A stretch of DNA of 64,000 nucleotides from Squalus acanthias (GCA_030390025.1 CM059432.1:42782001-42846000); one strand, 5' to 3'. Shown: positions 4,824 to 46,484, counted from the stretch's first letter. Program-made: numbers and translations. The notes: generated from the sequence alone by a model not told the origin.

Positions 4824-7058
4824 GTTGGACTGGGGTGGACAAAAATGAAAAGTCACACAACACCAGGTTATAGTCCAACAGATTTATTTTAAATTACAAG
4901 CTTTCGGAGCTGTCGCCCCTTTGTCAGGCAAAGGTACAGTGAGTGAATCTACAACATTACACCGTATATAAACACGGATACTGCAGAGATACAATCTTTC
5001 AGGGAAGGTGTCCTTACATCAAAGACATACCAGAGCACAGCCGAGACAATGAGATGTGTCACAGGGGGTCCAACGTGTCCAATCCTGCTGTCTGCAGTTG
5101 TTTTTTTTTGTTTTTGGGGTTTGTTTTTTTAAAGTTTTTTTTTAAACTGGAAAGACAGACAACGATGTCGAGTCACGTTCTGTAGCGTGACATGAACCCG
5201 ATATCCCTATTGAGGCCATCCTCATGGGTGCGGAACTTGGCTATCAGTTTCTGCTCGATGATTTTGCGTTGTCGTGTGTCTCGAAGGCCGCCTTGGAGAA
5301 CGCTAACCCGCAGATCCGAGGCTGAATGTCCTTGACTGCTGAAGTGTTCCCCGACTGGGAGGTAGCAATCCTGCCTGGCGATTGTTGCGCGGTGTCCGTT
5401 CATACGTTGTCTCAGTGTCTGCATGGTCTCGCCGATGTACCATGCTCTGGGGCATCCTTTCTTGCAACGTATCAGGTAGACAATGTTGGCCGAGTCACAT
5501 GAGTATGTACCATGTACCTGGTGGGTAGAGTGCTCACGTGTGATGATGGTATCTGTGTTCATGATCTGGCATGTCTTGCAGAGGTTGCCGTGGCAGGGTT
5601 GTGTGGTGTCGTGGTCGCTGTTCTCCTGACAGCTGGGTAATTTGCTGCGAACGATGGTACTTTTGAGGTTAGGCGGCTGCTTGAAGGCGAGTAGTGGAGG
5701 CGTGGGGATGGCCTTAGCAAGGTGTTCGTCGTCATCGATGACATGTTGAAGGCTGCGAAGAACATGGCGTAGTTTCTCCGCTCCGGGGAAGTACTGGACG
5801 ACGTAGGGTACTCTGTTGGTTGTGTCCCGTGTTCGCCTCCTGAGGAGGTCTATGCGGTTTTTCGCTGTGGCCCGTCGGAACTGTCGATCGACGAGTCGAG
5901 CGTCATATCCCGTTCTTACGAGGGCGTCTTTCAGTGTCCGTAGGTGTCCATCGCGTTCCTCCTCATCTGAGCAGATCCTGTGTATTCGCAGGGCTTGTCC
6001 ATAGGGGATGGCTTCTTTAACGTGGTTAGGGTGGAAGCTGGAGAAGTGGAGCATCGTGAGGTTGTCCGTGGGCTTGCGGTAGAGTGAAGTGCTGAGGCGT
6101 CCGTCTTTGATGGAGATTCGTGTGTCCAAGAATGAAACCGATTCTGAGGAGTAATCCATAGTGAGTTTGATGGTGGGATGGAACCTGTTGATGTTATCGT
6201 GTAGTCCTTTCAGTGATCCTTCGCCGTGGGTCCAAAGGAAGAAGATGTCGTCGATGTATCTGGTGTACAGCGTTGGTTGGAGGTCCTGTGCAGCGAAGAA
6301 GTCTTGCTCAAACTTGTGCATGAAGATGTTGTCGTATTGGGGTGCGAATTTGGTCCCCATGGCTGTTCCGTGTGTTTGGGTAAAAAACTGGTTGTCGAAG
6401 GTGAAGATATTGTGGTCAAGGATGAAGCGGATGAGTTGTAGGATGGCGTCTGGAGATTGGCTGTTGTTGGTGTTGAGTACTGAGGCTGTCGCAGCGATGC
6501 CGTCATCATGGGGGATATTGGTGTAGAGTGCCGATACGTCCATCGTGGCGAGGAGTGTTCCTGGTTCAACTGGTCCATGGGTGCTGAGTTTCTGCAAGAA
6601 GTCTGTAGTGTCGCGACAGAAGCTGGGGGTTCCCTGTACGATGGGTTTCAGGATGCCCTCGACGTACCCAGAGAGGTTCTCACACAGGGTTCCGTTGCCT
6701 GATACGATAGGACGTCCGGGTGTGTTGGCTTTGTGTATCTTTGGGAGGCAGTAAAAGTCTCCTACGCGGGGAGTACGTGGGATGAGAGCGCGTAGGATGT
6801 TTTGAAGGTCTGGATCGAAGGTCTTGATCAGTCTATTGAGTTGGCGGGTGTGTTCTTTGGTCGGATCTGCGGGTAGCTGTCTGTAGTATTCCTGGTTGTC
6901 CAGTTGTCGGTATGCTTCTTTGCAATAGTCCATTCTGTTCTGTATGACGATGGCTCCTCCTTTGTCCGCTGGTTTGATGACGATGTTGCGGTTGGTCTTG
7001 AGAGCGTGGATGGCGTTGCGTTGTGCTCGGGTGACATTCTGGACTGTCTTGTGAGTGC
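4824..7058 (-). mobile_element. Penelope-like retroelement, 5'-truncated
   Basis: RT + GIY-YIG ORF, and a 3' terminal segment shared with the copy at 44950-46947. Removing it restores the host MITE sequence CCTCTGATGATGTC|ATTGCTGCTGC (minus strand). Confidence 0.92.
4894..4931 (-). ncRNA. Minimal type-I hammerhead ribozyme-like motif with a variant core
   Basis: Minus strand reads TTGC-CTGACAA-A-GGGGC-GACA-GCTCC-GAAA-GCTT-GTAA. Stems I and II pair, but the core is CUGACAA rather than CUGANGA. Confidence 0.65.
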
Positions 7059-7059
7059 G
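5173..7059 (-). CDS. Penelope-like RT + GIY-YIG endonuclease, uninterrupted but 5'-truncated
   Basis: The frame is open upstream of the listed ATG (IKPADKGGAIV). Motifs: LPKIHK, GRPIVS, MDVSALYT, GTAMG, YTRYIDDIF, and NIVYLIRC..WYIGET..LRQRMNGH..HF..E (GIY-YIG). Confidence 0.93.
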   Translation of the reverse strand, partial: RTHKTVQNVTRAQRNAIHALKTNRNIVIKPADKGGAIVIQNRMDYCKEAYRQLDNQEYYRQLPADPTKEHTRQLNRLIKTFDPDLQNILRALIPRTPRVGDFYCLPKIHKANTPGRPIVSGNGTLCENLSGYVEGILKPIVQGTPSFCRDTTDFLQKLSTHGPVEPGTLLATMDVSALYTNIPHDDGIAATASVLNTNNSQSPDAILQLIRFILDHNIFTFDNQFFTQTHGTAMGTKFAPQYDNIFMHKFEQDFFAAQDLQPTLYTRYIDDIFFLWTHGEGSLKGLHDNINRFHPTIKLTMDYSSESVSFLDTRISIKDGRLSTSLYRKPTDNLTMLHFSSFHPNHVKEAIPYGQALRIHRICSDEEERDGHLRTLKDALVRTGYDARLVDRQFRRATAKNRIDLLRRRTRDTTNRVPYVVQYFPGAEKLRHVLRSLQHVIDDDEHLAKAIPTPPLLAFKQPPNLKSTIVRSKLPSCQENSDHDTTQPCHGNLCKTCQIMNTDTIITREHSTHQVHGTYSCDSANIVYLIRCKKGCPRAWYIGETMQTLRQRMNGHRATIARQDCYLPVGEHFSSQGHSASDLRVSVLQGGLRDTRQRKIIEQKLIAKFRTHEDGLNRDIGFMSRYRT

Positions 7060-8683
7060 ACATCATCAGAGGCGACTTTCAGACTGAAAACACTAATTGG
7101 TTCATGGGTTCCCACATGCTGGAACTCAATTGCCCAATTAGGTGAAAATTGCATCAATCTCCCACATCCAATTGCAGTCGTGTGGATGACACGACCCCAA
7201 CCCGCCCCAGTATCAAAATCCAGCCCTTAATCTTTCTCCTGGGTCTTGAAGAAAGTTTGGTTCAACGATTTAGATTTGGAGTTGAACAGGCCTCAGGTTA
7301 GATTTCCTGTCAACCTATTCAGTGCTGAGGCAGATTACTTGAGGGCCCCATTGGTTACTGATGGAGCGGTTTCTCAGTTGGAAATTATTGAACAGCAGGA
7401 AGATGGCAGATTAAAGTCAATTCTAAAATGAGGAAATACTTGCATTTTGAACGGCTGTGCCATGTGAAGTATCCAAGTATTAATACCGCTGCCCCATGTC
7501 AAATTTCTATGTTCACTTTTATCTGAGTCTACTTTCATGTAAAATCAAAGTAAAAATCTGTTCTGACTGATGCTCATATTTCAGAATTGTTATATTTAAA
7601 CACAACTAAGAACAAACCGAATTTCAAAAAATTGTAAAAAACAAATATGTTGAAATTCCTGACTGCACCTTGTACGATGCACATGCATTTTTGTTGCAGT
7701 TACAGGGAGAATATCACTGAGAATATTATTACTGCTAGTACTGGTGTTTCATTAATTATTAACAGAAATTGTTGATTTTTTTTCTTATTATTAACACTTA
7801 TTACTTGTTTAAATTATTGCAACTGTTGGAAAATAATAACCTTCCATTCCAAAATTTATGGCTGGGACTTTATTGTTGTCGTATCTCTGCTCAATGTAAA
7901 ATCTGTGCCATAAGTTACACTGAAAATATCCATAATAGCGTGTATCTAGTAATATTTAATTGAAGGCACTTTTGCCATAATGAAGTGCTATGGGCTGCAG
8001 ATGCAGGGTTCTCCTGCTGTTGGTGGCACTCCTGAACATAAAAGACCCAACATCTGTAAGCTCAGTGGCACTGGAGACCCAGCTTTGGGTTGTCTCTCCC
8101 AGAACCTGAACGTAATGTAAATGGGCCTGAACACTAGCAGCTGTTTGCAATATATAAAGGATGATTCCTTGATCCATTGCTGCTGCGGAGGGCTGTGTGT
8201 GCGTGGTACTCACAGCAAGCACATCTTGGGAAACTGCTGGAAAATGACAGGAGATCGCAGACTGTATGTCTGTGATTTCCCAAGATATGCTCCCTCCAAG
8301 CACCATTCCTCACTGGGAACGCTGGATTGTGAAATGAAATCTAGAATTTTTTTTAACTGTTAAGCTATTAAGGGTTGACCAGCCCTGGGCTGGAAAAACT
8401 TAGCCTTGAAGGGAGGAATATGACAAGGGACCATATAACGGTATACGAGATGCTGAGTGGAATGGACTAATCCAGATAACTATTTCCAGTTAAACCCCAA
8501 CTAAAGAAAAGGGATCATAGATACAAACAAAAGGCAAGTTCAGGTCTGATGTCAGATAGCACTTTTTCATGCAATGATTATTACCTAATAGTATTCCAGG
8601 GCAGTGGAGGCAAAACAAGAGGCAGTTAAATACTCGGACAGGTGGTGGATGATATATTTCACTGGAAGGCGGATGTGTTCGCC

Positions 8684-18460: not shown

Positions 18461-20211
18461 ATTATTGCCAACCGCATCGCCTCATAAATCAGGAGACAAA
18501 CTCTTAAAAATCATGAAATTTGGTATAGAAATCATGAGTTGCTACTTTTTTTCCGACCTGACCCCTCATTGACCTTTGCTCCCAGACAGGAAGCACATTC
18601 CACGACCTTTGCTCCCGGACAGGAAGCGCTTTCGGCCATCACTAACCTCTGTCTCTCTTTCTCTCTCTCTCTCAGTAAATTTGACACCGAGCCACATGAG
18701 ATATTAGGAGAGGTTTTAAGGAACGTCTTAAAGGAGGAAAGAGGGGTAGAGAGGCGGAGAGGTTTAGGGAGTGAATTCCAATGGTGGAGCGATTAAAATC
18801 GGGAATGGGCAAATCGGGGACACTCCTGTCTACTGAGAACCGCTCCCCAAAGAGATTTGTGTTTAACCGGGACTGATTTCTATGCTACTTTCTTCATCCA
18901 GTCTCACATCTGCAGCATGATCTAACTCTTACAACATAATAGGAAGTGCATTAAACTATCCTCTACAATTGTAATCTCTCTATTCAGACTATTACTTTTT
19001 AAAGCTCACCATGCTGTACTTCAGAATATATAATGAGGAAAACAGAAAGTCAAGTTTAGTCCACTCATCACAATTGCATATGCATCATATAAAATGAAAT
19101 AATGCACAAAGGATTTCCATACAATAAACTACAATGTATTTGCAAGAATAACATCACAGCTGTCATTTTTTTCCTAATGTGACTGTTATCATACTACAAC
19201 TCCAAGGAGAGAATTGACAGCTTGGGCTCGATTTTAATTCCCGAGGTGGGTTGGAGTTGGGTTGCGTGGTGGGCGGGTTCGGGAGCCGCTTCCGGCGGGA
19301 TCAGCTGCTGATCTCCGATTTTGATTCAATGAGCTTGTTAATTTCATGGAGGCGCGCTGGCCGGTCCAATGAGTGTGATCGGATCGGCTGGCTGCCTCTG
19401 ATGATGTCATAATAGCAGCTGCTTTTAAAGCTGCCATTCAACCTAAGCCTTTCTATTGTGGTTTCCTGGACTTGATTTAAATGCTATGACTTCTTCCAGA
19501 GGCAAGGCAGCTCCTCGTTTTAATGATGACTCCCTCCATGTTCTTGTGGATGCTGTCAGAGGGCGCAGGGAGATTCTCTTCCCTCCTGATGGCTGAAGGA
19601 AGCCTCCTCAGCAGACCAAGGCAGCCTGGCTGCGCATTACTCAGGAGGTGAGCGCAAGGTCCATTTATGCACGGTCATGGATCCAGTGCCGGAAAAGGTT
19701 TACTGATCTTTTCCGAACATCAAAAGTGAGTATCCCATCTCACTTGCCTTCACTCTGCTTCCCTTCTCTTCTCATCACCAGCACTCTGTGTTGTAAGCCT
19801 CCTCCTTCACATCCCATCTTACTCTTACTTCCCTTCCACCCTTTCCTATCCATCTCTGTCTCTGCACTGAATCACTTCAGTATCCTACCTATGCACCCCT
19901 TAGACTCGCTCTCACTGTCATGCAGTGACAACAATTAACAGGGAGCTAGCTTCCTCTTGGCACCTTACCCCATCTTCGTCTCCCTCAAAGCTTCTATGGT
20001 AAGGATTATTCACACTCACTCCATCACTGTGGCTGAAAAACTGCTTGTGTCCTTCCTTGCGGGAAAAGGTAGCCCACAATAAGAGGGAGAGAGCAATGAC
20101 TGGAGGAGGAACACCTGGCCTAGTAACATTGACCAGTGCTGAGGAGGCTGCAAACGAGATTGTTGGCGGTGGCGAGGACCTGGAAGTGGGCGATGGAGAG
20201 ACAGGCACACT

Positions 20212-21323
20212 TGTAGAGATTCGCGTATCTCTGGTAAACAGGATCGAGTGCAAACCAATATGGTGGGTATATTGTGTTTAATCGGAGTTTAGGACGGAAT
20301 AAAACACACTAGTAATACAGCAAAAACATACGACTGTGACAAGCAGTTGGTACCGGACCCGATCATACAGACGGCTGGCGTGCGTGAACAGTTCTCTGGC
20401 TTCCGGCCTCTCTCTCCCTCGCTTTCTCTCTCTCTCTCTCTAGAACCTCCAATGGTGAGCATGTGATCACTCTCAAAAGAGCGTTCGACCAACCCAACTT
20501 CTTTTTGCAACTTCTGTTCGGCTCTCCCCTCCACCGTCTGTGGGCAAGCCCTTGGGGTGTCACTTTTATTCCCATTTTAGGGGTGAGCCTGAGGCCAAGT
20601 TATTGACAAGACCATTTAACCTATAGAGGTTCCTCCAAAACTTCATCAACCAATGACAGCTCAAGTTCTTTGTCTTGCCTCTTGGACGAAAGCCCCCTCC
20701 CCAAAAGAGGGTCTCATTACTTCATCCAATTTATCTTTCTTGTTTTTACATTTTGAAGGTTCCTCCATTGGAACTCGTCTTATCTCTCTTGACTCTATTC
20801 TCCTTAACCCAGCAAGTACAAGGCCTGGCCCTGTCCCTCTTAATCATAGCCCCAGCCAGAGCTGTCGCACATTAGTCAGTCGCTATCTCGCCTTCATCTA
20901 GCAAATGGCCCATTCTAAAATGGATACCTTATCCTCCTCAAATTCCTTTCATTCTATGTCTTTTCCTAATTAACTTTTAATTATCTTCACAAGCAGTTCT
21001 GCTAAACAAACTCCAAATTCTATCGGCAGAGATTATAATATGGTTATTAGTAATAATGGAAGAAACATAGGTTGGGCCTTCACTGGCCAAATTTAAGATA
21101 CATTAACAAAGTCAAAACCCTAACTTACAAACAACAGATAACTAGCCTGGCAGGGCCATCCTGTGGGCCCCCGTGTGGAATGTTTATGTTTCACCTAATC
21201 TAACTGATTAAAAAGACTGTCTCAAATTCTAATGCAAGCTTTCCAGGAAAACAAAACTTATCATTTAAAAACAGTATTATTCATGTAGCCATATACATTT
21301 TTAGGCATCCCTAGTTTCTAACA
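20212..21323 (-). repeat. 3' LTR (1112 bp)
   Basis: Direct repeat of 27624-28749. Minus-strand AATAAA at ~20565-20570. Confidence 0.95.
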
Positions 21324-21334
21324 GTCCCCACCTT
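21324..21334 (-). other. Polypurine tract
   Basis: Minus-strand AAGGTGGGGAC immediately before the 3' LTR TGTTAG. Confidence 0.75.
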
Positions 21335-21591
21335 GAGAGGGAGAAAAACTCTACTTCGACCTCTCATTTTTGACCCTCTACTAACCATGCCAACTCTAAA
21401 GTATTAGTTTGACAGGTTCAATTCACTGTTCCGGTGTTCCAATTCTGCCCCGCCTGAGGTATCCTCTGTTTCTTCTATCTTTCCTGATCTTACCCCGCCT
21501 GGGGTCTCCTCTGCATTGCCTCTGATTTTCATCCGTCATTAATTAATTAGTTCAGTTAGTCATACTTATAGATACACATTTGGCTTATGCA

Positions 21592-21912
21592 TCAAAGTCT
21601 TACTACACGGGTTACATATATCAAATATACTGTCATTACAAGTTGGAGAACTACCAGAGCGTGTGAAATGATACGAACCTAAGGGTGTGTTGATGTATAA
21701 ACCCCAATATCCCACCAGTGTGAATCGTCCCCGATGCTGTCAATTTCAATATCTATTCTCGAGTTGTCTTGCTCCAAAACATAAAATTGCTTTAGGGGGG
21801 AGTTCAGTCGCATCACGAGCTCACTGAATTCCTCAGACAACAGGAGAATGTCGTACCTGAATTGTACCACATAACTGTGCAGCTCATACTGGATCGTACT
21901 GGCTTTTCCCAC
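21592..21912 (-). pseudogene. env C-terminal remnant (heptad-like helix, HWWD, transmembrane segment)
   Basis: ...LSEEFSELVMRLNSPLKQFYVLEQDNSRIDIEIDSIGDDSHWWDIGVYTSTHP*VRIISHALVVLQLVMTVYLIYVTRVVRL*, lying between IN and the PPT. Confidence 0.65.
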
Positions 21913-22075
21913 GCTCTGTTACCTACAGAACACAATTATTACAGTCACAGTTATAATTCAGTCTTACAATCATTAGCACGTCGACTAAGTACATACATTT
22001 CAAGCGACAATGATACAAAACAAAGAATACAGAAATTGTGAAGAAAGCTACAGTTTTTCATCTAACCAGGAATAT

Positions 22076-25000
22076 TTATTCTTTCACAGTTTTCAACTGA
22101 TTGATGTGGTACCATTTAGTCATCTTGGCACTCCCCTTTTTCCCAGGGAATTGCACCAGATAAACCGAAGGACTGGCCCTGTCAATAATCGGGAAGGGGC
22201 CATTCCACTTTGTTTTGAAGCAATGTTGCTTCTTCCCATAGTTTAATACCATTACAACATCTCCCACTTGATATTCAAATGGTCGGACCTTCTTGTTGAA
22301 GTATTTCTTTGCCTGGTTTTTTGATTTGCCTGTTTGTGTAGCTACAAACATGTTAGTTTGTTCTATGTTTTCTGCCATTTTTGGTTGGCAATTCCCTGTA
22401 CTAAGGGTATGGCTGAAGGGGTTAACAGATGGGCTGGCATTCGCATTAGTCGCCCGGTCATAGCCTGGTAGGGTGAGATACCCGTTGTGCTATGCGGAGT
22501 GGATCTAATAGCCATTAGACACATTGGCAACATACTGGACCATTTGGTAGGGTGATCTGCACAAAATTTGTTTAACATAGTTTTCAGAGTTCGGTTTCCT
22601 CTTTCCACCACTCCAGATGATTGTGGGTGATGGGAAATGTGAAGTTTATGCGAGATACCCATTATCCGTTGTAGTTCGGTAAAAATTTGGGCGGTAAAGT
22701 GTGATCCCTGATCACTATCAACTTGAATTGGCACTCCCCACCTGCAGATCACCTCACCCAATAAAAGGCGAGCCGCTGTCAATGCGGTGTTTGTTTTACA
22801 TGGAAAAGCCTCCATCCATTTAGTAAATTTATCAACTATAACCAGACAATACCGCAAGCCAGAAGGTCCTGTAGGTAGAGGCCCTATGAAGTCAATTTGA
22901 AGGTGGGTCCACAGCCCATCAGGAGGAGGGGGACTGTGCAACTGTGCCCGATTAGTGTGGGCACTTGGATTGTGCTGTAAACAGGGCAGACAATGATTCA
23001 CCCTATGAGTGACATCTGTGATGCAATCGGGAAACCATGCAAATTTGCATAGTTTCTGAACAGTTGCATAAGCTGAATAATGCCCTCCTACCGGGTGTGA
23101 ATGCAGGAGATCAAAAATTTCGGGTGCCATGGATGGGGGAACACAGACAACTGAGAGATCATATGATAGCCACCGCAAGCGGGGGTTGTACATTAACAGG
23201 GGAGCAGCTTCCCCAGTCTGATCCGGAGCCAACTGGGTGTCTGCAGCCCATGGAGTGGGCTGAGGTAACGGACATCCATTCTGCCGCCATGCAATAACAA
23301 CTACATAGGGGGAATAACTGGACTGGAGGAAAGGGAGGTCGATGTCCCCACCTTGGATACTCGAGACTGATCTTAAGGGAGGGGTAGGGGCTTGCCAGAG
23401 GTCACCGTTAACTGTGGCGTCCTTGGCAGCACGATCTGCCTGTGAGTTACCTTGGGTATGTACATCTGAAGAACGTGAATGGGACTTCACCTTACCAATA
23501 TAGACAGGGGCTGATCGTGAATTTAAAGAGTCCCAAAGGGAAGCAAAGAGGTCTGTATGGAGCAGGGTTCTTACCATCGACAGTACAAAAATTATTCCGA
23601 GCATACAGCGGTAAAGATAAAAAAGTGCTAATCGCATAGGCTCTATCTGACCAGACATTAACAGGTATGTCATGAGTAATTTGGATTGCTGTCACCAGGG
23701 CTGCAACTTTAGCATATTGGGCAGAGTGGGGAATACATTTATACTTAAGTTCTTGGTCAGGCATGACTACTGCAAATCCAGTAAGGGGCTTTCCGTCCCT
23801 GTGATAGGATAACCCATCAATGTAGACGTTCTGGGCGTCACTTAGCGGAGTAGGAGAGATGGGGTGATAGTCGAACTCCAGTGGTGGAAGGGGGCACTCA
23901 TGGCTTCCCCCCTCGTACAGTAGGAGCTGAGGTAGTAGAGTTATCTACCTTGGCGTTATTTCCAAATCTCTCTGAGTTAACAGAGTGTCCAGTGACAGAG
24001 TCGGGCAGAGGAGACCAAAGTGTCCCCTGGTTTAAGTAGAAGATTCAAAGGGGTGTGGGGGCTATGTATGATCGTTTTGTTCAGCCTAGTAATAAACGTG
24101 ATGTGTTTGCCCAAAAAGTGGCTAGCAGATGTCGCTCACACACAGTGAAATTCTTTTCCACGCCATTCAAAATACGGGAGGAGAATACGATTGGCATAAA
24201 TTTACCCAGTACCTTTTGGCACAGAACAGCAGCAAGACTCTGATCGGTGGATCCCACCTCCAGGTGGAAAGGCTTATCTTGGTCAGGGCTTATCAGTGGC
24301 TTGCATAACAGCAGTTTTAAGGAGGGACACAGCCGTTGTATGTTCGGTGGTCCAGTCACGGGCCACAGCATCCTCTTCACCCTTTAACAGTTCATATAAT
24401 GGTTTGGCTAGCTCCGCAAATCTGGGAATAAATGAGCGCTGGTATCCCACTAGGCCCAGGAAGGAGTGAAGTGCGGTTTTGGATGCGGGCAATGGTAAAC
24501 GCTGAATTACGTCAATCTTATGCTGGTCAGGGCTGAGTCCCTTTGGCCCACAGAAACCCCTAAAAATATCACTTCTGGCTGTAACAGTTGTACCTTTTTG
24601 GGGTTAATTTTCAGCTCAGCTTTTAGAAGAAGGTCTAATAGCTCTTCCATTAATTTAATATGAGTCTTTTTGTCAGGCATTGCAAGCAAAAGGTCATCAA
24701 CATACTGCAGCAGGCAGTCGGGTCTCGAAAAAGGTTTCAGTGCCTGAGCCATCTGTTTGTGGAATATAGTTGGGGCGTTGTGAAAGCCTTGAGGTAAACA
24801 TGTCCAAGTATAACTTTGATCTTCAAAAGTGAAGGCAAACTTGTACTGATCCTCTGACTTAACAGGAATACTCCAGAAGCCGTTTGAAATGTCAAAGGTG
24901 GAGAAGTAGCAGCTACCTGGTGGAATCTGGGACAGGAGAGTGGGGGTCTCCCGAACAACAGGGGCGCAAGCTGGGGTTACCGAATTAAGCTTGCGATAAT

Positions 25001-25790
25001 CAATTGTTAGACGCCAGCTATCATCTGGTTTCTTAACTGACAAGGTTGGAGAATTAGTGGTAAAAGTGCCAGTGTGGATAACACCCTGCTTTAACAATGA
25101 ATCGATAGTAGACCGAACATAAGGTTTACTCTCAGCCGGAATGGAATACTGCTTAACAGGAGGGTGGGAAGGTCCATTAATCTCCTCATCTCCCGACATC
25201 CTACCACAATCGTGTTTGGACTTAGCAAAAACCTCTGAAAATTTATGAATTAATGTATTAACCATGGGGTCTTCAGTCGTGGGAAGGGTGAAATCCTTGG
25301 GTTTTTTAATTGCATATACCGAATGGACATCTGAAATAGGTGTCGGTGGTCCCTCATTAAAGTGCCACCAAAGACAATCAGTAGCGTAGTCGAGGACAGC
25401 ACAGTGTTTATGCAGCGTGTCACTTCCGAGGATACCTTTCTGGTCATGGGTGGCCATATATACAGGAGAGGGGGCATCGACGGAATTCCCATCATGGGTG
25501 GCCATATATACAGGAGAGGGGGCATCGACGGAATTCCCATCAATGGACAAGACTGTGGAGCTCAATCCCTGATTAGCTAACTGAGTAGAAGCATTAAAGC
25601 CAGTGAGGTTTAGGGCAGTGCCAGAATGGGAAAAGGGAGCAGGGGTCATGTAAAATAGTCACGGCAGAACCGGAATCCACAAGCATAACATGGTGGCGGC
25701 CTCCATGATCAGTGGCCCGGACAAAAGGTCGTCCGTCCTCCCCGTACCAGACAGGAGAAGACGTGGTCACTGTGGAGGCCTCTGACCGTC
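22076..25790 (-). pseudogene. pol: pol: protease, RT, tether (degenerate RNase H), RNase H, integrase with GPF module; frameshifted
   Basis: MLVDSGSAVT (~25660-25690); WRLTIDYRKLN, FDISNGFWS, LPQGFHNAP, LQYVDDLL; PFHLEV..FSSRIL..CERHLLA; VYIDG..SAQ..WSD..GNSQAD; HHCC, QIDF, DSDQG, VERGN, WNGPF. Confidence 0.92.
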
Positions 25791-25919
25791 ACTGGGGCCG
25801 TGAGTCTGGGAGCGCATCTCCGCTATGAGAAACAGCCGAAATGTTTTGCCCCCACGCCTGACTGTGCTTCATGGCCTCAACTACCGGCGAAAGGTGTTCG
25901 AGCTGCTGCTGCACAGAGT

Positions 25920-27507
25920 TCAAATCAGACCCGTCATCTTCACGGATTGGGGTTGGTAGCGTGGGCCATTATTTGGACGTTGACTATCGCGACAGTCGCG
26001 AGCATAGTGTCCGGACTTATAACAGTTATAACAGATCACGTGGCGTTTGTCTCCTGACTGGGGAGGGGTTTGTGGTGTCAGAGGACCCTCCACCGCCGAC
26101 ACTTTGGACCCAGTAGGGGTGAGGGATGATTTAACTCGGTCCCAAGCTCGAATGCAAGTGTCCTCCAGATCAGCCCACGGGGTTCCCTGATGAACAGTAA
26201 TACCAAGAGCATCCCTTATGGGGGGTAAGAGAGCATCGATGAATGTCAGCTTAAATCCCTCCGTGTCCCAAAACTCTTGACCATTACGATTTTTCTGGGA
26301 CTGGTTGTACAAATCATACAATCGATTTGCAAAGGCTACGGGATGCTCGTTAGCCTCTTGCCGGGCATCCCCAGCCGCACGGGTGAAATTAACTGCGTCC
26401 ATGCCCAAACGGGAACAAACTGAATCTATAACATCCCACCAACCCTTACTTTTATCATAGATTTCCCGTGAAAGTGATAACTTGAGTTCCCGTGAAATGC
26501 ATGACAACAGAACTTGTTTTAAGTCTGTCAACTCTAACTCAGGGTGACAGTGACGGAATGTACCCCAATCACTTGTTAGGGTGACTGGGTTCGTCCCCCA
26601 GTTTATTGGCCCCAATTCTTCGGCTAGTGCTTTGCACTCCACCGGGGTCAAACTTCTACTGGTAGTAGTAGTTACTTCCACATTTGGGGGCAGGTTGTAG
26701 GCTACAGAGGAGGTATCATTGTCAAATTCATCATCCGAGGGTGTAGGGTCACCAAATTGGGTGGTAGTAGTGACTATATTAACCTGCTTGGTTTCTACCA
26801 GGGCAGTTTGTCCTGGATAGGGAGGTGGAGGCGCAGAGGGTGAGGGACTATTTTGGCAGATGGGGTTATTATTGCACTGGGCTTTTCTTGTTAGATCGTC
26901 CCAGTTAATACCGGGATCCCCTGGTTTAAGGCGACTAAAGGCCGCAACAGCAGCTGTTTGTCTCCCCAGCTTTCCCGTCAATTCCATAATTTTTAATTCG
27001 CAGTGAGTATGGTCAGTGCTCACCAGAGGGGGTTTCTGAAGTAATTCTCTCAAGGCTCCCCTGGCGTCCTCAAGTTGTGAGATCAGGATTCATTTTTTAT
27101 TTTTAAAGCCTTGTTATCCTCAAACACCTGATGGTGGCGTCTTGAGGCAAGTCGTGCCTCATCTGCCAAGGCTTGTTCTTGATGGAGAAGTGTACAGACT
27201 GTGGCATGTCGGCCTTGCCAGTCCTGTAAGTCTCTTTCAAGTTGTGCATTTCTCTCTTTCAGGAGTACAACTTCGCCTCCCAAGCGAACAGCACACAAGT
27301 GGGCCGCGTAAGCCAGCCTATTTCTGGCTTCCTTAACTTTACATTTCTTCGCACCCACCTGGGACGCTATCTCGCCCCAAATCTCAGAGTAACTTTTCTC
27401 ACTCTTCTCATCACCCTGCACTATTCCGATTACTGCTTGGGCCCCGGAGCCCCTAACTTATCCGAAAGACTGTTCGCAACCTTTTCTGTAAAATACGCAT
27501 CTGCCAT
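25920..27507 (-). pseudogene. gag: gag with N-terminal coiled coil, PSAP/PPPY late domain and CCHC zinc knuckle; frameshifted
   Basis: ATG at 27507 (MADAYFTEKV), ORF pieces 27083-27421 and 25920-27053, PSAPPPPY, major-homology-like ARQEANEHPVAFANRLY, and CYNCYKSGHYARDC. Confidence 0.88.
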
Positions 27508-27600
27508 TTTGTTTTTACTTTACAACCCGATAAGAACACCTAGTACCTTTTATAGACCGAACCCGTCCTCAACTCGTTTCGACCACAACAACCCTGTTGC

Positions 27601-27620
27601 ACTCCTGGCTCGGCTCGCCA
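27601..27620 (-). other. Primer-binding site, tRNA-Arg(ACG)
   Basis: Plus strand ACTCCTGGCTCGGCTCGCCA equals the vertebrate tRNA-Arg(ACG) 3' end ACTCCTGGCTGGCTCGCCA plus one extra C. It lies 3 nt from the 5' LTR. Confidence 0.85.
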
Positions 27621-27623
27621 ATT

Positions 27624-27823
27624 TGTAGAGATTCGCGTATCTCTGGTAAACAGGATCGAATGCAAACCAATATGGTGGGTGTATTGTGTTTAATTGGAGT
27701 TTAGGACGGAATATAACACACCAGTAATACAGCAAAAACATACGACCGTGACAAGCAGCTGGTACCGGACCCGATCGGACAGACGGCTGGCGTGCATGAA
27801 CAGTTCTCTGGCTTCCGGCCTCT

Positions 27824-27870
<47 letters not shown>

Positions 27871-28749
27871 GAACCTCCAATGGTGAGCATGGGATCACTC
27901 TCAAAAGAGTGTTCGACCAGCCCAACTTCTTTTTGCAACTTCTGTTCGGCTCTCCCCTCCACCGTCTGTGGGCAAGCCCTTGGGGTGTCACTTTTATTCT
28001 CATTTTAGGGGTGAGCCTGAGGCCAAGTTATTGACAAGACCATTTAACCTATAGAGGTTCCTCCAAAACTTCATCAACCAATGACAGCTCAAGTTCTTTG
28101 TCTTGGCTCTTGGACGAAAGCCCTCCCCAAAAGAGGGTCTCATTACTTCATTCAATTTATCTTTCTTGTTTTTACATTCTGATGGTTCCTCCATTGGAAC
28201 TCGTCTTATCTCTCTTGACTCTATCCTCCTTAACCCAGCAAGAACAAGGCCCAGCCCTGTCCCTCTTAATCATGGCCCCAGCCAGAGCTGTCGCACATTA
28301 GCTAGTCGCTATCTCGCCTTCATCTAGCAAATGGCCCATTCCAAGATGGATACCTTATCCTCCTCAAATTCCTTTCATTCTATGTCTTTTCCTAATTAAC
28401 TTTTAATTATCTTCACAAGCAATTCTGCTAAACAAACTCCAAATTCTATCGGCGGAGATTATAATATGGTTATTAGTAATAATGGAAGAAACATAGGTTG
28501 GGTCTTCACTGGCCAAATTTAAGATACATTAACAAAGTCAAAACCCTAACTTACAAACAACAGATAATTGGCCTGGCAGGGCCATCCTATGGGCCCCCGT
28601 GTGGAATGTTTATGTTTCACCTAATCTAACTGATTAAAAAGACTGTCTCAAATTCTAAAGCAAGCTTTCCAGGAAAACAAAACTTATCATTTAAAAACAG
28701 TATTATTCGTGTAGCCATATACATTTTTAGGCACCCCTAGGTTCTAACA
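27624..28749 (-). repeat. 5' LTR (1126 bp)
   Basis: Direct repeat of 20212-21323 with a longer internal (TC)n tract. Confidence 0.95.
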
Positions 28750-31700
28750 CACTAGAGGAAGCTGGTGACATAATAGTTTCATCCCTCTCAGAAAGCAATA
28801 GCATATGATGTTCATAGAGATTCGCGTTGTATCATCTGCTCATAAGGATGTGTCGGCTACATCAATATCAGATGTCTAAATCATGCCGTTACTCTCTCAC
28901 AGGACCATTGAGCACCCCCCTCCCCACGATCCAGGATGAAGACCCGGACAACTCCTCAGAGGAACCTGAAGCCTCTGAGGGAGCAGCATCACCAGGACTC
29001 AGCGCATCCAGCACCAGCGCAGTAACGCTCACCTCGGTGGGGACATCATGAGTTAGTGTAGTGTTGCCACCTGGTCTATCACAGTGCTCAAGTGAGCATC
29101 AGCAGATGGTGGAGACAGCGACAGCAGTGGAGAGTCCTCGGAGGAGGTCGCAGGACTCTCCTAGCTCTGCTGAGCTGCATGCAGATGCTGTGCCTCTGGG
29201 GCCATCCAGAAAAAGAGCGGTTCGTGAAATACAGGAACAAGTGCAGGTGTCTCTGGAAGGGTTTGCCTCCAGGGTTAGTGCGAGTGTGGAGAGAATGGAG
29301 AAGTCCATCTCTAACATCAGCACTGCCGTGGTGGAGGCAATGGCGCATGAACGCACCACCATGGATAGGATGGCAACCTCCGTGGAAAGGCTGGCTACCT
29401 CAGTGGAAAGGATGGCTATGGCCATGGAGGAAATAAGTCTCCAGAGTCAGGAATACATGGTGACTGCTCAGAATATAATGACATCTCTGGAGGAGCGATG
29501 GGCAGCTATTGAGCAGAGAGACCAAAGCTTCATGGACGTCCTTTTGAGGAGGACTGCCAGTGCAGTCCCCCTGAAGTGCAGCAGGGTGCTCTCCAGCCAC
29601 TTGCCAGCACTGAGGTGCGGCTGACCCATGAGAGGGATGTTGTTGACAGGACAGAAGGAAGTGTGGGCTCCTCTCAAAGTGCTCACACGACCATGCCACT
29701 GCGGAGCCCTCGGTCAGAGACCCACTTTGCAGAGACAACTGAGATGGCCGTTTCAGCCCCTGCACTGCCGCAGGAAGAGCAGACTGTTGAAGAGCGCTCC
29801 CAGAGCATGCCTGCCAAAGGCGTCTAAGCAGGCGCAGCATCCTAGTCAGCAAGGTGCCTCTACATCTGCTGAAGCCACAGGGGAAGCACCATGTAGAAGC
29901 ACCCGTAAGAGAAAGATTAAGCACCTATAGTTACAAGGGGAGTCACTTAGGTGTTTTGTCTTTTTTTACTGACTCTTGCTGGTTTATTATCCTTTTGTCA
30001 TGTGATAAAGATAAATTATGTCAAACAGTTGATTGTATGGCCTATGTGTTATGGGAAATGGCAAAAGCGCATTGAGGGCTCAGGGCGACTTGCTTTTGTA
30101 ATGCTGATGGTAAAAGTGATAGGAAATAACAGGGTATAGCAGAGATGAAGTATGATGTTGGACAAGTGTCGCCTGCAATTACAGAGCCATATGGTAGTCA
30201 CCTATGGTTGAAGAGTAAGCTTATGCTAATGTGGCATGGCAGTGTGCATACCCTGGTTGACGGGCAGCAGTGAACTGGAGGGATGCTGCATTGGTCACAA
30301 CAGGGCATGTAAGGTGCCCATCGTCCTCCTCCTACTCCTCTTCCCAGAAAGATCTGCGCTGAGCCACGCGGCTGCTACCCCTCCGATTATGAGGACCAGG
30401 ATGAGAGGGCATAAATGTTTCTCATCCCCTTGCTATAGATTTCATTTGAGGCAACAATCTTGCAAGCGCACAGTCGAAGTGACCTGAAATTATTCCATTC
30501 ATGTCACACTGCAGATGGGTGTCAGCCTGAACAGTCAGAAGGTCAGTAGATGTGCCAAAAGTTATCCCATACCTACAACACAAAGTTGTTGCATTTGCAT
30601 TTCAGCCATGTTTCAGGGGCGCTTTTAAAGCGCTCCACCAATGCATACAAATCATGTCCTCCAGCAACTCATCTCCTTGAACCTGGCCTGTTTCTGACAA
30701 GTTGGGAAACAGGAGCCAGAAGCATAAAAATGGGAAACCACTATCAAAATAGGATTAGCAAGGCAGTTAACAGGCTGTCCCACCGGTTCCAGACGGGCCA
30801 GTTTGGGAGCGGCTAAACAGACACGCAAGAAAATCGGGTGGAGGCGGGTTGGGTGTCTGAAGCCATTTTTTCCGATTTTCGCAACAGACCCACCTCCAAA
30901 CCCGCCTCCTCAGAGCTATTAAAATCGAGCCCCAGGTATCCATAAAACAGAATAAAATCACTTCCTCAAACTAAGTGTACTTTTGATATAAATATGTACC
31001 CTGAAATCATTTCATGGCATTAAGCAAATTTGGGGTTTTAAATTATACTTGTAATCTTCTTGTGTTTTGTTATATTGTCTGAAGCCATCAGATTCGATTA
31101 CTGCCTTCAAATTAATTCAGAGAATTGGTAGCTCTATAAATAAAAGGTAGAAACATCCCTGTTTTAAGGAGATTTCAGTCAGTCGGTTTTGAAGGAGCAG
31201 AATGCCATGTTTGGGGTCTTTATCACATCACATGCAAGCGATTCATGTTCCAGAGATGAGAGAGAGTAGCTAACAACTTGGCGGAATGCCCCTCCAGGTA
31301 TTTTAGCAGATTGTGACTGCAGAGATGTGGTCTTTGACTCACCTCCTGAATCCAGAAATGCTTAACTCTCGGGGGGGAATACGCCGATTTGCGCATACAC
31401 GAAAAATATACACGATTCACGTATGAGCAAATTGCATATTATTTACAAATAAAAATCCCGAGATTTAGGCATTCCATTGTGAAATCACAAGTGAAGCTTT
31501 GTTTCACTCCAAAATCATGTCTCTTGTGACCCTCAGGATGTTGATGGTAGGGACCTGGGTGCTAGTGGTGTTGTGAAGGTCAGGGGAAGTGATTGGGCCT
31601 TTCCTTGCTGAAGATGGTCGAAAACAGCATCCAGAAGGCATCTAGCCCTGAAATTCCTCTGCTGCTACTGCAAAAAAAGATATTTCATCTAATTATGTTT

Positions 31701-37155: not shown

Positions 37156-39126
37156 ATGTCCAGCACCAGACCAAAGTGTGCATCCCGTTTCGATGAGAAC
37201 TCCCTCCAAGCTCTGGTGGAGGGAGCAAGAGCGAATAAGGAAGTGCTATTTCCTTCTTCAGGGAGGAAAAAGCCTCCCCAACAGACCAAAGCTGTGTGGC
37301 TGCAAGTGGCACAGGAGGTGAATGCCATATCAATGTGCAGCAGAACCTGGCTGCAGTGCTGAAAGAGGTTTCATGACCTTCTCCGCACAGGAAAAGCGAG
37401 TATTCCATCCCCATGACCCTCAATCTGATCCCCATCGCCTCTCATCACCAGCACTCTGCTTTGTCAACCTCCTCCTCCACATTCCACTTGACCCTTACAT
37501 CCCTGCACCCTTAACCATTCCCTCTCTCTGTATGTTCACATTCACTTAATTATTCGACTATGCAGCCCTCACACTCCCTATCACTGTGATGCAATGACAA
37601 CAACTTACAACACACAGGGAGGGCCCTTGGTCTTGGCACCTCACTCCATCTTTGTGTCCTTCTAAGCATCAATGCTATGGATTCTCTACACTCACTCCTT
37701 CATTCTCACTCAAACTCCACTTGTGTCCCTCATTGCAGGAAAAGAGAGCCCACAATAAAAGGGAGAGGGCGAGGACAGGAGGAGGGCCACTCTCAATAGC
37801 CCAGCTCACCACTGCAGAGGAGGCAGCCCTGGAGATCGTGGGAGTCGAGGAGGATGCACGAGTGGGGGACAGACAGACGGGCGCATCAGAGCAAGCTGGT
37901 GACAGAATAGTTTTTCATCTCTCTCATTGACATTGCATGAGTGACTGATATTGATTCTGATGCTCTAACAGATTGACTTATGATCATCTGCACAATTCAA
38001 TGTGCATACAACGTTTATCTCACAGGTCTAACTCTTTCCTTTACTCCCCCACAGGACCATCGACAGCCCCCCTCCCCACTGTCCAGGAGGAACAGCCTGA
38101 GCCTCAAGACTCCTCAGAGGAAGCTGCAACCTCTGAGGGCGCAGCGTCAGCAGAATTAAGCGCACCCAGCACCTGCGCAGACACTCACACCTCGGTGGAA
38201 CCTTCGGGAGATAGAGTAGAGTTGTCACCTGGTGTATCACAGCTCAAAAGTGAGCATCAGCAGATGGTGAAAACAGGTGCAGCAGTGGAGAGTCCTAGTC
38301 GGAGGGTGCAGGACTCTCCCAGCTCGGCTCAGCTGCATGTCGACCCTGTGCCTCCGGGTCCATCCAGAAGCAGAATTCCAGGAACAGGTGCAGGAGACTC
38401 TGGCAGGTTTTGTCTCCAGGGTCGCTGCGAGTGTGGAGCGAATGGAGGAGTCCATCGCTAACATGAGCAGAGCCTTTGTGGAGGCGCTGGCACATGAACG
38501 CATCACCACAGAAAGGATGGCAACCTCCGTGGAAAGGATGGCTAGCTCCGTGGTAAGGCTGGCTACCGTAGAGGAGAGGATGGCCACGGCCATGGAGGAG
38601 CTTAGTCGCCAGGGTCTTGAAAACATGGTCATTGTTCAGAATAGACTGACATCTCTTGAGGAGCAATGGTCAGCTATTGAGCAGAGAAACCAAACCTTCA
38701 TGGAAATCCTCTGGAGTAGGACTTCAGTGCAGAAACGGGTCCTCATGGCCCCCCTGAAGTGCAGTAAGGTGCTGTCAAGCCACTTGCTAGCTCTGAAGTG
38801 GGGCTGACCCATGAGAGGGATGTTGGTGGCAGAGAACAAGGAAGTGGGGGCTGCTCTCCAAGTGCTCACACGACCCTCTGCAGAGCCCTCGGCCAGAGCC
38901 CCACCAGAGTCCTCACCCAACTGAGATCGGCGTCTCAGCCCCTGCACAGCCGCAGGAGCAGCAGACTGTTGTCGAGCCCTCACAGGCTCGCAACCCCAGA
39001 GGACGCTCACCAAAGGTGTCGAGACAGGAGCAGCAAGAAAGTGAGCAAGGGGCCTCCACATCTGCTGCAGCCACAAGGGAAGCACCACGTAGGAGCACGC
39101 GTAAGAGGAAGATAAAGCACAAGTAG
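37156..39126 (+). pseudogene. Harbinger Myb/SANT protein; exons 37156-37395, 37739-37898, 38055-39126
   Basis: RFDENSLQALVEG..W..VA.EVN...RTWLQC*KRFHDL, TTGCAG|GAAAAG acceptor, EKRAHNKRERARTGGG, phase-compatible exon 3, heptad repeats, and a basic C-terminus RRSTRKRKIKHK*. Stops and frameshifts are present. Confidence 0.88.
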
Positions 39127-39384
39127 TCACAAGGGTAGTCACTTGGGTGTTCTGTTGTGTTTATTTTTGAAAAGCCACCCGTGATTTTGTGATTAAAAAA
39201 AACTTGATGGCAAATTGTTGAAGTTGTGGCCTGTGTCATTTCGCAAATGGGACTTCCACATTGAGGGCGTAGGGCGACTTGCAATTGTCAGTATGGTGGT
39301 CAGAGTGATAGGAATCCGCAGGTTCTTGGCCATTATCCATGCTCTGGTAAGAAGGTGCGAGGCAAAAGTGTTTGATTGGGCAGG

Positions 39385-40619
39385 CTAAGCAAATCTGGCC
39401 AAGATGAGTGCGTCCCTTGCATCCTGGGCAGCAATATGCTCGCGTGCTGCCGCCGCTGGTTGATGCGCCTCTGCAAGCTGTTCGTTGTCACTCTCCTCCT
39501 CCTCCTCCTCCTCATCTGAGGAGGCTAAGCAATGAGCCACTTGTACCTCAGGCAGCTGCAAGCCACGATGCTGTGCCATGTTGTGAAGTGCACAGCAGAC
39601 CACGACGATTCTGGAGACCCTGGCTGCTGAGTACTGCAGGGCTCCACCTGATCTATCCAGGCATCTTAATCGCATCTTCAGCAAGCCGATGGTTTGCTCG
39701 ATTATGGAGCTGGTGGAAATGTGGCTGGAGTTGTAGCGCTCCTCAGCTTCGTTGGACGGCCTCCTCAACGGCGTCATTAGCCACGTCTTCAGGGGATAGC
39801 CCTTGTCTCCAAGTAGCCATCCGAAAAGTTGGTCTGGCGGACTGAAGAGCGGAGGCACTCTAGACTGGCGCAGGATGAAGGAGTCATGGCAACTGCCAGG
39901 GTACTTGGTGCAAACATGCAAAATTTCCTTCTTGTGGTCACACACCAGCTGCACGTTGAGGGAGTGGAAGCCCTTGCGGTTAACAAAAATACCTGGATTG
40001 TGATGGGGTGCCTTAAGGGGCCACATGTGTGCAGTCAACGATGCCCTGCACCCTTGGAAAGCCTGCCAGATTAGCAAATCTGACCGCACGCGCAGTTACA
40101 CTTGCTTGATCCTTGGAGAAGTTGATGTAATTGTGCGCGATGGCAAAGAGGGCATCGGTTACCTGTGTGATGCAAGTGTGTGCGGCCACCTGGGAGATTC
40201 TGCTGATGATCCCTGGAATGAGCCTGAAGCAAAAAAGTTGAGTGCGGTGGTGACTTTGACGGCCACTGGTAAGGGGTGTCCACCCGCTCCTCTGGGCTCC
40301 AGGTCTTGCTGCAGCATTGCGCAGATGTCACCCACTACCTCACGCGAAAGTCTGAGCTTCCTTTGGCACTGCTGCTCAGTCATGTTGAGGTAGCTCATCC
40401 TCTGTCTGTAAACACTGTTTTGGGGTATCTCCTGCGGCGACGTGCTTCCATGTGCTGGCGCCTTCTGGCCTGTGGAGCTTCAGGTGGGTGAGCAGCAGGT
40501 TGGCGCTCCTGTTGTTGATCCTGCAGTTGGTGCTGCTGTTGTTCCGGGTGCTGCTGCTGCCACGGTTGGTCTTCGTCCGAATCTGATGTCCAGGAGCAAA
40601 GGAAATAAATGGTTCCCAT
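39385..40619 (-). pseudogene. Harbinger (HARBI1-like) DDE transposase, frameshifted
   Basis: [20 protein letters not shown] (shifted frame), [39 protein letters not shown] and CCALHN. Confidence 0.92.
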
Positions 40620-44129: not shown

Positions 44130-44951
44130 GAACTGGCAAGTGATAAGGCCATACTAGATTTAGTGATGAGTAATGAACCAGAATTCATGAACAATGTGAC
44201 TGTAAGGAAAGATCTTGCAAATAGGGACCATAATATGATTGAATTTGATTTTAGGACATAGATAGTAGTATGTTTGAGATCTTGCGGCGGTAGTTTAAGG
44301 GCGGAAGTGAGAACATAGGTGTACTGGAGGATGATATGGAACAACTGTCAGTTATAATTGTAGAAAAGGAATTGGTTCTGAAAAAAATTAACAGAACGCT
44401 AGTTAAATTAGCTGCCAGGCACTGATGACATGGCTGTTGAAAAAAGCCAGAGAGATGATAGCAGAGGCTCTGGCCACAATTTTTCAATTCTTGTTAAATA
44501 TGCAAAATATGTTGTTGGATTGGAGAGTTGCCAGTGTGACACCTTTATTCAAGAAGAAAGCGAAGGATAAACCAGTAACTATAGACCAATACATCTAGTG
44601 TTAGTTGTGGGCAAATTCTTAGAATCGTAATTCAAGATAAAATTAGTGAGAATTAGAAATTCATGAATTAAATAAGATCAACCAACAAGGATTTGTTAAG
44701 GCAAGTAGTGTTTGGCAAAATTAACAAGTTTTTTTTTGAAGAAGTGACTGATTGAATAAATGAAATTCAGTAGATGTAGTGCATATCAGTTTTAAGAAGA
44801 TGTTTGATAAGGTGTCTCATCGGGGGCTTGTTAAAAAAATTCAGGGGTTATGATAGAAGAGAAAATGTAGCAGCATGGATAGAAAATTAATGGTTAGGAA
44901 ACAAAAAGTTAGGGTTTTGCCTGGATTGGACAATGGTTGGAATAGTGTATC

Positions 44952-46484
44952 GTATCAGGCAATGGAACCCTGTGTGAGAACCTCTCTGGATACGTCGAGG
45001 GCATTCTGAAACCCATCGTACAGGGAACCCCCAGCTTCTGTCGCGACACTACAGACTTCTTACAGAAACTCAGCACCCACGGACCAGTTGAACCAGGAAC
45101 ACTCCTTGCCACGATGGACGTATCGGCACTCTACACCAGTATCCCCCACGATGACGGCATCGCTGCAACAGCCTCAGTACTCAACATCAACAACAGCCAA
45201 TCTCCAGACGCCATCCTACAACTCATCCGCTTCATCCTTGACCACAATGTCTTCACCTTCGACAACCATTTTTTTACCCAAACACACGGAACAGCCATGG
45301 GGACCAAATTCGCACCCCAATACGCCAACATCTTCATGCACAAGTTCGAGCAAGACTTCTTCGCTGCACAGGACCTCCAGCCAACGCTGTACACCAGATA
45401 CATCGACGACATTTTCTTCCTTTGGACCCATGGCGAAGGATCACTGAAAAGACTACACGAAAACATAAACAAGTTCCATCCCACCATCAAACTCACCATG
45501 GACTACTCCTCAGAATCGGTCTCATTCCTGGACACACGAATCTCCATCAAAGACGGACACCTCAGCACTTCACTCTACCGCAAGCCCACGGACAACCTCA
45601 CGATGCTCCACTTCTCCAGCTTCCACCCTAACCATGTTAAAGAAGCCATCCCCTATGGACAAGCCCTGCGAATACACAGGATCTGCTCAGACGAGGAGGA
45701 ACGCGATGGACACCTACGGACGCTGAAAAACGCCCTCGTAAGAACGGGATATGACGCTCGACTCATCGATCGACAGTTCCGACGGGCCACAGCGAAAAAT
45801 CGCATAGACCTCCTCAGAAGGCAAACACGGGACACAACCAACAGGGTACCCTACGTCGTCCAGTACTTCCCCGGAGCGGAGAAACTACGCCATGTTCTTC
45901 GCAGCCTTCAACATGTCATCGATGACGACAAACACCTCGCTAAGGCCATCCCCACGCCTCCACTACTTGCCTTCAAACAGCCGCCTAACCTCAGAAGTAC
46001 CATCGTTCGCAGCAAATTACCCAGCTTTCAGGATAACAGCGACCACGACACCACACAACCCTGCCATGGCAAACTCTGCAAGACATGCCAGATCATCAAC
46101 ACAGATACCACCATCACACATGAGGACACTACCCACCAGGTACATGGTACATACTCATGTGACTCGGCCAACGTTGTCTACCTCATACGTTGCAGGAAAG
46201 AATGCACCGCGGCATGGTACATCGGCGAGACCATGCAGACACTGAGACAACGTATGAACGAGCACCGCGCAACAATCGCCAGGCAGGATTGTTACCTCCC
46301 AGTCGGGGAACACTTCAGCAGTCAAGGACATTCAGCCTCGGATCTGCGGGTAAGCGTTCTCCAAGGCAACCTTAGAAACACACGACAACGCAAAATCATC
46401 GAGCAGAAACTGATAGCCAAGTTCTGCACTCATGAAGACGGTCTCAATCGGGATCTTGGGTTTATGTCACGATACATGACGTGA
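44952..46484 (+). CDS. Penelope-like RT + GIY-YIG endonuclease, uninterrupted but 5'-truncated
   Basis: Frame open from 44952 (VSGNGTLCENLS). Close paralogue of 5173-7059. Confidence 0.93.
   Translation, partial: VSGNGTLCENLSGYVEGILKPIVQGTPSFCRDTTDFLQKLSTHGPVEPGTLLATMDVSALYTSIPHDDGIAATASVLNINNSQSPDAILQLIRFILDHNVFTFDNHFFTQTHGTAMGTKFAPQYANIFMHKFEQDFFAAQDLQPTLYTRYIDDIFFLWTHGEGSLKRLHENINKFHPTIKLTMDYSSESVSFLDTRISIKDGHLSTSLYRKPTDNLTMLHFSSFHPNHVKEAIPYGQALRIHRICSDEEERDGHLRTLKNALVRTGYDARLIDRQFRRATAKNRIDLLRRQTRDTTNRVPYVVQYFPGAEKLRHVLRSLQHVIDDDKHLAKAIPTPPLLAFKQPPNLRSTIVRSKLPSFQDNSDHDTTQPCHGKLCKTCQIINTDTTITHEDTTHQVHGTYSCDSANVVYLIRCRKECTAAWYIGETMQTLRQRMNEHRATIARQDCYLPVGEHFSSQGHSASDLRVSVLQGNLRNTRQRKIIEQKLIAKFCTHEDGLNRDLGFMSRYMT

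Follow-up and report, generated by a model that had tools for sequence, protein, structure and literature searches.

Among described retroviruses, those closest to the element treated here are related to the snakehead retrovirus (SnRV). Lineage I of the elephant-shark elements known as CmiERV clusters with SnRV (Han 2015, PMC4422223). SnRV-related elements, united as clade Huo, occur in all major vertebrate lineages, and SnRV-like elements are reported from frogs and coelacanth (PMC6001957, PMC4977317, PMC12193657). Lokiretroviruses were scored in 0 of 6 chondrichthyan genomes (PMC7947760), so a lokiretrovirus in such a genome would have been new. The present subject is a stretch of 64,000 nucleotides from Squalus acanthias (GCA_030390025.1 CM059432.1:42782001-42846000; hereafter the window), in which a provirus occupies exactly positions 20212-28749 on the minus strand. 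An initial annotation had read it as a lokiretrovirus that might extend the host range of that group to cartilaginous fish. I propose that it is, very probably, a defective elasmobranch endogenous retrovirus (ERV) of the SnRV-like canonical lineage to which CmiERV lineage I and clade Huo belong, that its ancestor carried an envelope of the F type, and that an env-less form was copied in the germ line.

Consider first the reverse transcriptase (RT). It was compared with 58 reference loci: 16 foamy, 3 that match the motifs of lokiretroviruses (loki), SnRV itself (its RT identical to the SnRV row of the loki paper's data set), and 38 of gamma, epsilon, delta, alpha or beta type. SnRV gave the best BLAST score (215 bits), with foamy at 154 and loki at 143; identity to loki RT was 36%. 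Trees were rooted on Gypsy and held 36 rows for RT and 26 for RT joined to the tether, the degenerate first RNase H. Both split loki, at 100/99, from the shark lineage together with all canonical retroviruses. (Near-duplicate references and short rows were dropped before these trees and those of integrase (IN) and RNase H were built, and the 36-row tree replaces a first quick one made without loki and foamy rows.) By the approximately unbiased (AU) test on RT, grouping with loki is rejected (p=0.0026), as is grouping with foamy viruses, represented by four mammalian RTs (p=0.027), and with gamma/epsilon viruses (p=6e-5). Grouping with SnRV is not rejected, either with RT (p=0.14) or with RT plus tether (p=0.29). 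In a tree with Gypsy but no Odin rows the RT lies inside the canonical retroviruses at 100/99, whereas Ty3/Gypsy and Odin fall outside Retroviridae; Odin moreover has no env, which sister copies carry, and Gypsy a single RNase H. The RTs of HERV-L and MuERV-L, compared by eye only, differ from it at the catalytic motifs.

Other parts of the provirus agree. Its Gag finds SnRV Gag by BLASTP at E 2e-11 and loki Gag at E 0.11. The shark family and SnRV have in common a primer-binding site (PBS) for tRNA-Arg, a homologous Gag with a coiled-coil-like region and one CCHC knuckle, and an Env membrane subunit that starts with a basic site and then GLGE. The exact SnRV PBS is found in two other loci, L031 and L058, and tRNA-Arg(ACG) genes in the host genome match the PBS. 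The differences from SnRV are that Env in the shark family is about two-thirds as long, that no accessory open reading frame was seen, and that IN and tether are much closer to loki. As published, the SnRV-like group is defined by RT, and its definition does not call for SnRV-likeness of IN and Env.

It is with CmiERV lineage I that the resemblance is closest to home. The RT of the CmiERV element on scaffold 2, translated by eye from the published supplement, is identical to that of the provirus at 101 of 150 residues by hand count (about 67%), so the lineage was already known in cartilaginous fish, and the provirus is a new elasmobranch variant of an SnRV-like lineage already described. A family already catalogued in sharks, which the initial annotation had named as speaking against its view, is thus to be found in CmiERV lineage I (PMC4422223). 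The two elements also have the same IN C-terminal motifs, polypurine tract (PPT) and start of the long terminal repeat (LTR), and the elephant-shark element likewise has a coiled-coil-like Gag N-terminus and both tether and RNase H; its LTRs diverge by 0.033. They differ in host, holocephalan in the one case and elasmobranch in the other, and in primer. A search of the Han 2015 supplement for the primer-site motif gave 0 matches, because the CmiERV element carries a PBS that is probably of the Ser type and not of the Arg type seen here. The two elements differ in envelope as well: by eye, CmiERV env is of the gamma type, with an immunosuppressive domain and a CX6CC motif, whereas the shark family has an F-type Env without either (CX6CC was looked for in two Env frames). 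A gamma-type Env on the same Pol lineage in elephant shark would be a direct case of envelope-class swapping.

The nearest Pol proteins in the databases come from Xenopus (58%) and from other frogs and coelacanth (45-51%), and these relatives are annotated NYNRIN-like. An early loki reading, prompted by those frog and coelacanth matches, was dropped after comparison with published loki RTs. No match to the provirus RT was found among the viral contigs searched. The same lineage is represented in the host genome by no fewer than four additional RT families, with identities of about 60-75%; another RT family, at 45%, groups with the frog and coelacanth members.

How did the copy come to lack an envelope? 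Nothing in the env-bearing sisters matches, at the DNA level, the 648 nt that follow the integrase stop (22070-21423), yet these match another abundant group of loci at 82-94%. One locus of that donor group carries a Pol only 59-73% identical to that of the provirus. The segment is nonetheless derived from env, as it matches the Env profile at E 8e-24, and the translation shows HWWD ahead of a hydrophobic segment, just as had been noticed at the outset. The provirus is a chimera, in which the family's own env has been replaced by a 648-nt env fragment of another lineage; the last 100 nt are once more the family's own sequence. The copy illustrates well how env can be captured and lost before amplification. 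The same arrangement recurs in the best 40 of 1,489 candidate places. Among 34 family loci, 17 have the env remnant, 12 a long env and 5 neither, and 16 of the 18 remnant copies scored have in common a stop that precedes the membrane anchor. Both RT subclades, separated at 100/100, contain the remnant, and this implies recombination. LTR-pair distances run from 0.019 to 0.054 in remnant copies (n=9) and from 0.052 to 0.067 in env-bearing ones (n=6); L161 and L165 were excluded from this range since their self-matches took in other repeats or tandem copies.

Two further observations concern copies in the genome. Loci L052-L071 are abundant and carry the donor-type env fragment, most of them with no gag or pol of the lineage within 10 kb and several with an LTR-like repeat pair; they likely represent a non-autonomous element. 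Family copies also lie clustered a few kb apart at C4:65.38-65.57 Mb and C5:52.21-52.27 Mb, probably through tandem or segmental duplication.

These facts suggest a history. The germ line would have been invaded by an SnRV-like virus, enveloped and equipped with an F-type fusogen; its reverse transcription would have been primed by tRNA-Arg and its Gag-Pol presumably made by read-through, as in SnRV. The co-packaged RNA of a related lineage may then have donated the deleted env by template switching. The resulting genome, env-less but with gag and pol retained, would have multiplied, most likely by intracellular retrotransposition, and this copy would have decayed after insertion. It seems to me fairly likely that the env-less form spread within cells, and not through reinfection helped by an Env in trans. 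The alternative, that the chimera was packaged with the Env of env-bearing sisters and reinfected the germ line, is possible but on the unlikely side. In its favour, the RT tree does not separate env-bearing from remnant copies, and the remnant stands in both subclades, which bespeaks co-packaging and recombination. Against trans-complementation, the LTR pairs of remnant copies come out younger than those of all six measurable env-bearing copies.

What sort of envelope did the ancestor have? In the env-bearing sisters, integrase is followed by about 2.3 kb that encode a furin-type site, a hydrophobic peptide whose start, GLGE, is that of SnRV, and then heptad repeats, a Cys-rich region, a membrane anchor and a short tail. 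When the Env frame was used in a word-based search for homologs, 0 of 2546 candidates qualified; phmmer against PDB returned coiled coils only, and a genome-wide search with Pfam Fusion_gly found no match but was uninformative, since its controls were silent too. A full HMMER library search gave 33 homologs, and the ten that were looked up come, among others, from Chiloscyllium, Heptranchias, owls and frogs of four genera. The profile of these homologs matches foamy Env in PDB (E 0.002). A wide Env profile, run against 237 reference frames, picks up the Envs of loki (E 3e-11, 2e-10) and of SnRV (E 3e-5); foamy Env falls outside this comparison, as the reference foamy loci come without transmembrane subunits. 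A structure was modelled from a natural 415-residue frame covering the C-terminal part of Env only, with a mean predicted confidence (pLDDT) of 73.7. Its top Foldseek matches are the F proteins of human metapneumovirus (hMPV) and measles virus and foamy Env, at E 4e-8. VIA gives foamy Env a Z of 8.5 (root-mean-square deviation (rmsd) 28.8, 293 residues aligned) and hMPV F a Z of 8.1 (rmsd 27.8, 316 aligned), and in a viral structure library the model matches F-type glycoproteins. The family's Env is accordingly predicted to fold like paramyxovirus and pneumovirus F and foamy Env, with which it shares 10-14% sequence identity; the Pol of the provirus is not of the foamy kind. The supposition that Env would resemble the fusion proteins of Mononegavirales is thus supported for the sister copies, this copy keeping only a fragment.

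Related envelopes are scattered elsewhere. P0157 (GCC29952.1, Chiloscyllium punctatum) is an uninterrupted Env of this type, 739 residues long. The notion that GCC29952.1 is a domesticated shark gene found no support in the host genome, where the closest sequences are many broken copies, at 66-82%, beside pol remnants. There are long open Env homologs in owls (Strix, P0182 cluster) and near-identical multi-copy ones in frogs (Mantella, P0165 cluster; Bombina, P0175 cluster), so the Env type is widespread. In related families the N-terminal part of Env gave weak immunoglobulin-domain matches (Ig_3 E 0.0065, V-set E 0.045; L045:743-1531 (-) and P0160).

If the prediction is right, the Env of a canonical shark lineage bridges those of loki, SnRV and foamy viruses, and it bears on whether retroviral Env arose once or twice. 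The model preferred in PMC9040795 is that loki and canonical retroviruses had independent origins, and it rests on Envs without detectable similarity. Foamy Env has already been shown to be F-like, a class Ib fusogen (PMC11468914), so the shark Env extends the link to F rather than opening it. In searches of an open-access library, I found no paper that states an F-type Env for SnRV-like ERVs. One may go further and suppose that retroviruses had an F-type Env from the start, acquired a single time ahead of the split between loki and canonical retroviruses, with the shark lineage as the earliest canonical branch. I regard this as rather doubtful; if true, the F-type Env was later replaced in orthoretroviruses, contrary to the model of PMC9040795.

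There is much that sits awkwardly with the proposal that the provirus is SnRV-like and descends from a virus with an F-type Env. The best RT and RT-plus-tether trees place the lineage outside SnRV, foamy viruses and orthoretroviruses together, at 84/91 and 85/89, values that are unstarred. Integrase shows 43-47% identity with loki against 29% with SnRV; its best tree, built without CGIN1 rows, joins it to loki at 71/93, and its grouping with SnRV is rejected (AU p=0.006), although SnRV IN is a long branch. The tether, too, scores best with loki by BLAST. The trees hold two loki rows, both teleost, and leave out ERV-L/S, fish foamy-like, Odin and CmiERV rows. As for Env, Pfam Fusion_gly was the best match in 2 of 11 frames but below the cut-off (E 0.005-0.007), the structural model has a predicted template-modelling score (pTM) of 0.43 and high global rmsd, and a profile made from shark sequences alone finds loki Env (E 2e-6, 2e-4) and misses SnRV Env, the best of 303 reversed or shuffled controls reaching 4.4 bits. 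The family loci were chosen by their likeness to this copy, and their RT tree is mostly unresolved (3 starred branches out of 31) and mingles the two kinds of copy, with remnant and with long env, so that it does not fix the order of events.

Part of this evidence invites a different view: that the slow-evolving lineage of shark, frog and coelacanth is the earliest branch of canonical retroviruses, retaining an ancestral F-type Env and an integrase of loki/CGIN1 type, and that "SnRV-like" names a grade. Such a view is compatible with membership in the same lineage as CmiERV-I. It draws on the outside placement just given, on a lineage that is monophyletic at 89/94, on an IN that goes with loki and not with SnRV, and on a profile homology to loki Env that exceeds every shuffled or reversed control. 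It is weakened in that no support value reaches the starred level, SnRV grouping is not rejected, Gag and PBS are SnRV-like, and key taxa are missing from the trees. Moreover, short branches here set against long ones in SnRV, foamy viruses and orthoretroviruses make up the pattern of long-branch attraction, and could by themselves yield both the outside placement and the loki-like IN and tether. I judge an early branch improbable, about as much so as the single origin of Env.

A foamy-like ERV of the shark and frog kind (FLERV: CmiFLERV, XtrFLERV), or an element like the catshark "ERV-Spuma", is much less probable still. The best match among solved RT structures is foamy, but SnRV has no solved RT structure. 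Env resembles foamy Env in profile and fold, and a frog and shark FLERV clade has been published, the nearest protein here being from Xenopus. Set against these are the rejected grouping with mammalian foamy RT (CmiFLERV and XtrFLERV sequences stood outside the comparison), the CCHC knuckle in Gag, the Arg PBS, and an RNase H outside the foamy group.

It is too much to suppose, finally, that cartilaginous fish here yield their first true lokiretrovirus, even granting the dual RNase H, coiled-coil Gag N-terminus, homologous F-like Env and similar IN and tether: RT grouping with loki is rejected, Gag is unrelated by BLAST, the RNase H tree puts the shark family outside a loki+foamy clade (95/88), and the RT lacks the RWPM (or close), RCPFGY/RxPFGY and EFNIFL (or close) that published loki RTs share (PMC7947760). 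Dual RNase H, moreover, is common to all retroviruses and does not discriminate. Some loki genomes have an optional smc-like coiled-coil gene before gag (PMC7947760); here a coiled-coil-like frame with no Pfam match precedes the main gag frame, and SnRV Gag has a comparable region. When loki RT was used as a query on the genome, all 150 places scored, out of 15,019 candidates, were 33-41% identical, so no close loki was seen. The assignment to lokiretroviruses falls, and with it the extension of their host range, the lineage having already been met in SnRV-like form in elephant shark.

The supposition of a chondrichthyan host fared better. The 3.71-Gb host genome has a single RAG1 match, and over residues 1-330, the N-terminal third, it is 89% identical to Heterodontus, 85 to Scyliorhinus, 84 to Rhincodon, 83 to Amblyraja, 78 to Narcine and 76 to Hemitrygon; the other 34 of 40 matches are at most 50% identical. 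By this measure the host belongs to the elasmobranchs, with a shark more likely than a ray.

The anatomy of the provirus (Table 1) bears out the structure that had been read from it: a complete succession from LTR through PBS, gag, pol, env remnant and PPT to LTR, with LPQG and YVDD both legible in the RT translations and two RNase H-like domains. Of ten natural frames, six had a Pfam match (zf-CCHC, RVT_1, RT_RNaseH for the tether, Integrase_H2C2, rve) and four did not, including the coiled-coil frame and the env remnant. The second RNase H scored 22.3 bits against a cut-off of 25.8, and the SH3-like IN C-terminus was also under its cut-off. The N-terminal coiled coil of Gag had only a crude check, the best a/d register being 56% hydrophobic.

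Table 1. Features of the provirus, in coordinates of the window
Feature	Position	Strand	Basis
Right copy of target-site duplication (TSD), CACT	28750..28753	.	direct reading and empty-site test
5' LTR, 1126 nt, with CT microsatellite and one AATAAA (27998)	27624..28749	-	
PBS, tRNA-Arg(ACG) type, identical to SnRV PBS except for one inserted base	27602..27620	-	
gag N-terminal frame, likely coiled coil; frame break before rest of gag; no Pfam match	27086..27457	-	
Main frame of gag, with a capsid-like region and one CCHC knuckle	25920..27089	-	Pfam zf-CCHC; BLASTP to SnRV Gag
Protease region, frameshifted, contains tandem duplication	25200..25788	-	
Reverse transcriptase, LPQG and YVDD, over two frames	24286..25199	-	Pfam RVT_1 E 2e-34; trees
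Tether (degenerate first RNase H)	23980..24383	-	Pfam RT_RNaseH_2 E 1e-13
Second RNase H, two frames, lower bound approximate	23400..23944	-	Pfam RNase_H E 1.6e-4, under cut-off; tree
Integrase with H2C2, core and SH3-like C-terminus, over two frames; approximate upper bound	22076..23250	-	Pfam H2C2, rve
Swapped-in, internally deleted, non-coding env fragment: C-terminal heptad repeat, HWWD, membrane anchor	21423..22070	-	mosaic map; profile match; common stop
Family's own env end / 3' untranslated stretch	21335..21422	-	86-91% to env-bearing sisters
PPT, short, imperfect	21324..21334	-	
3' LTR, 1112 nt	20212..21323	-	
Left copy of TSD, CACT	20208..20211	.	direct reading and empty-site test

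Both LTRs have TG...CA ends; the PBS begins 3 nt after the 5' LTR, and a short run of purines leads into the 3' LTR. The 4-bp duplication that had been claimed is real, since CACT is present once in each of two paralogous empty sites of a host repeat (window about 37738-37926 and locus L064). An exact 48-nt tandem duplication (25444-25539) lies in the protease region and is absent from the sister frame compared. The copy is dead, gag and pol being broken across at least nine frames. Its LTRs align with 1072 matches, 38 mismatches and 18 gap columns and are 3.5% apart (Kimura two-parameter distance 0.035). With rates of 2.2e-9 and 2.2e-10, both taken from PMC4422223, insertion would have taken place 8-80 million years ago, according to the rate assumed.

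The provirus landed within a host repeat (window 19597-20211 and 28750-29624) with Myb/SANT-like and nuclease-like frames, presumably a Harbinger/PIF transposon, of which an empty paralog lies 9 kb away at 37738-40095. Elsewhere in the window, at 5173-7062 and 44946-46484, are two long RT/endonuclease-like frames, which I take to be Penelope-like elements.

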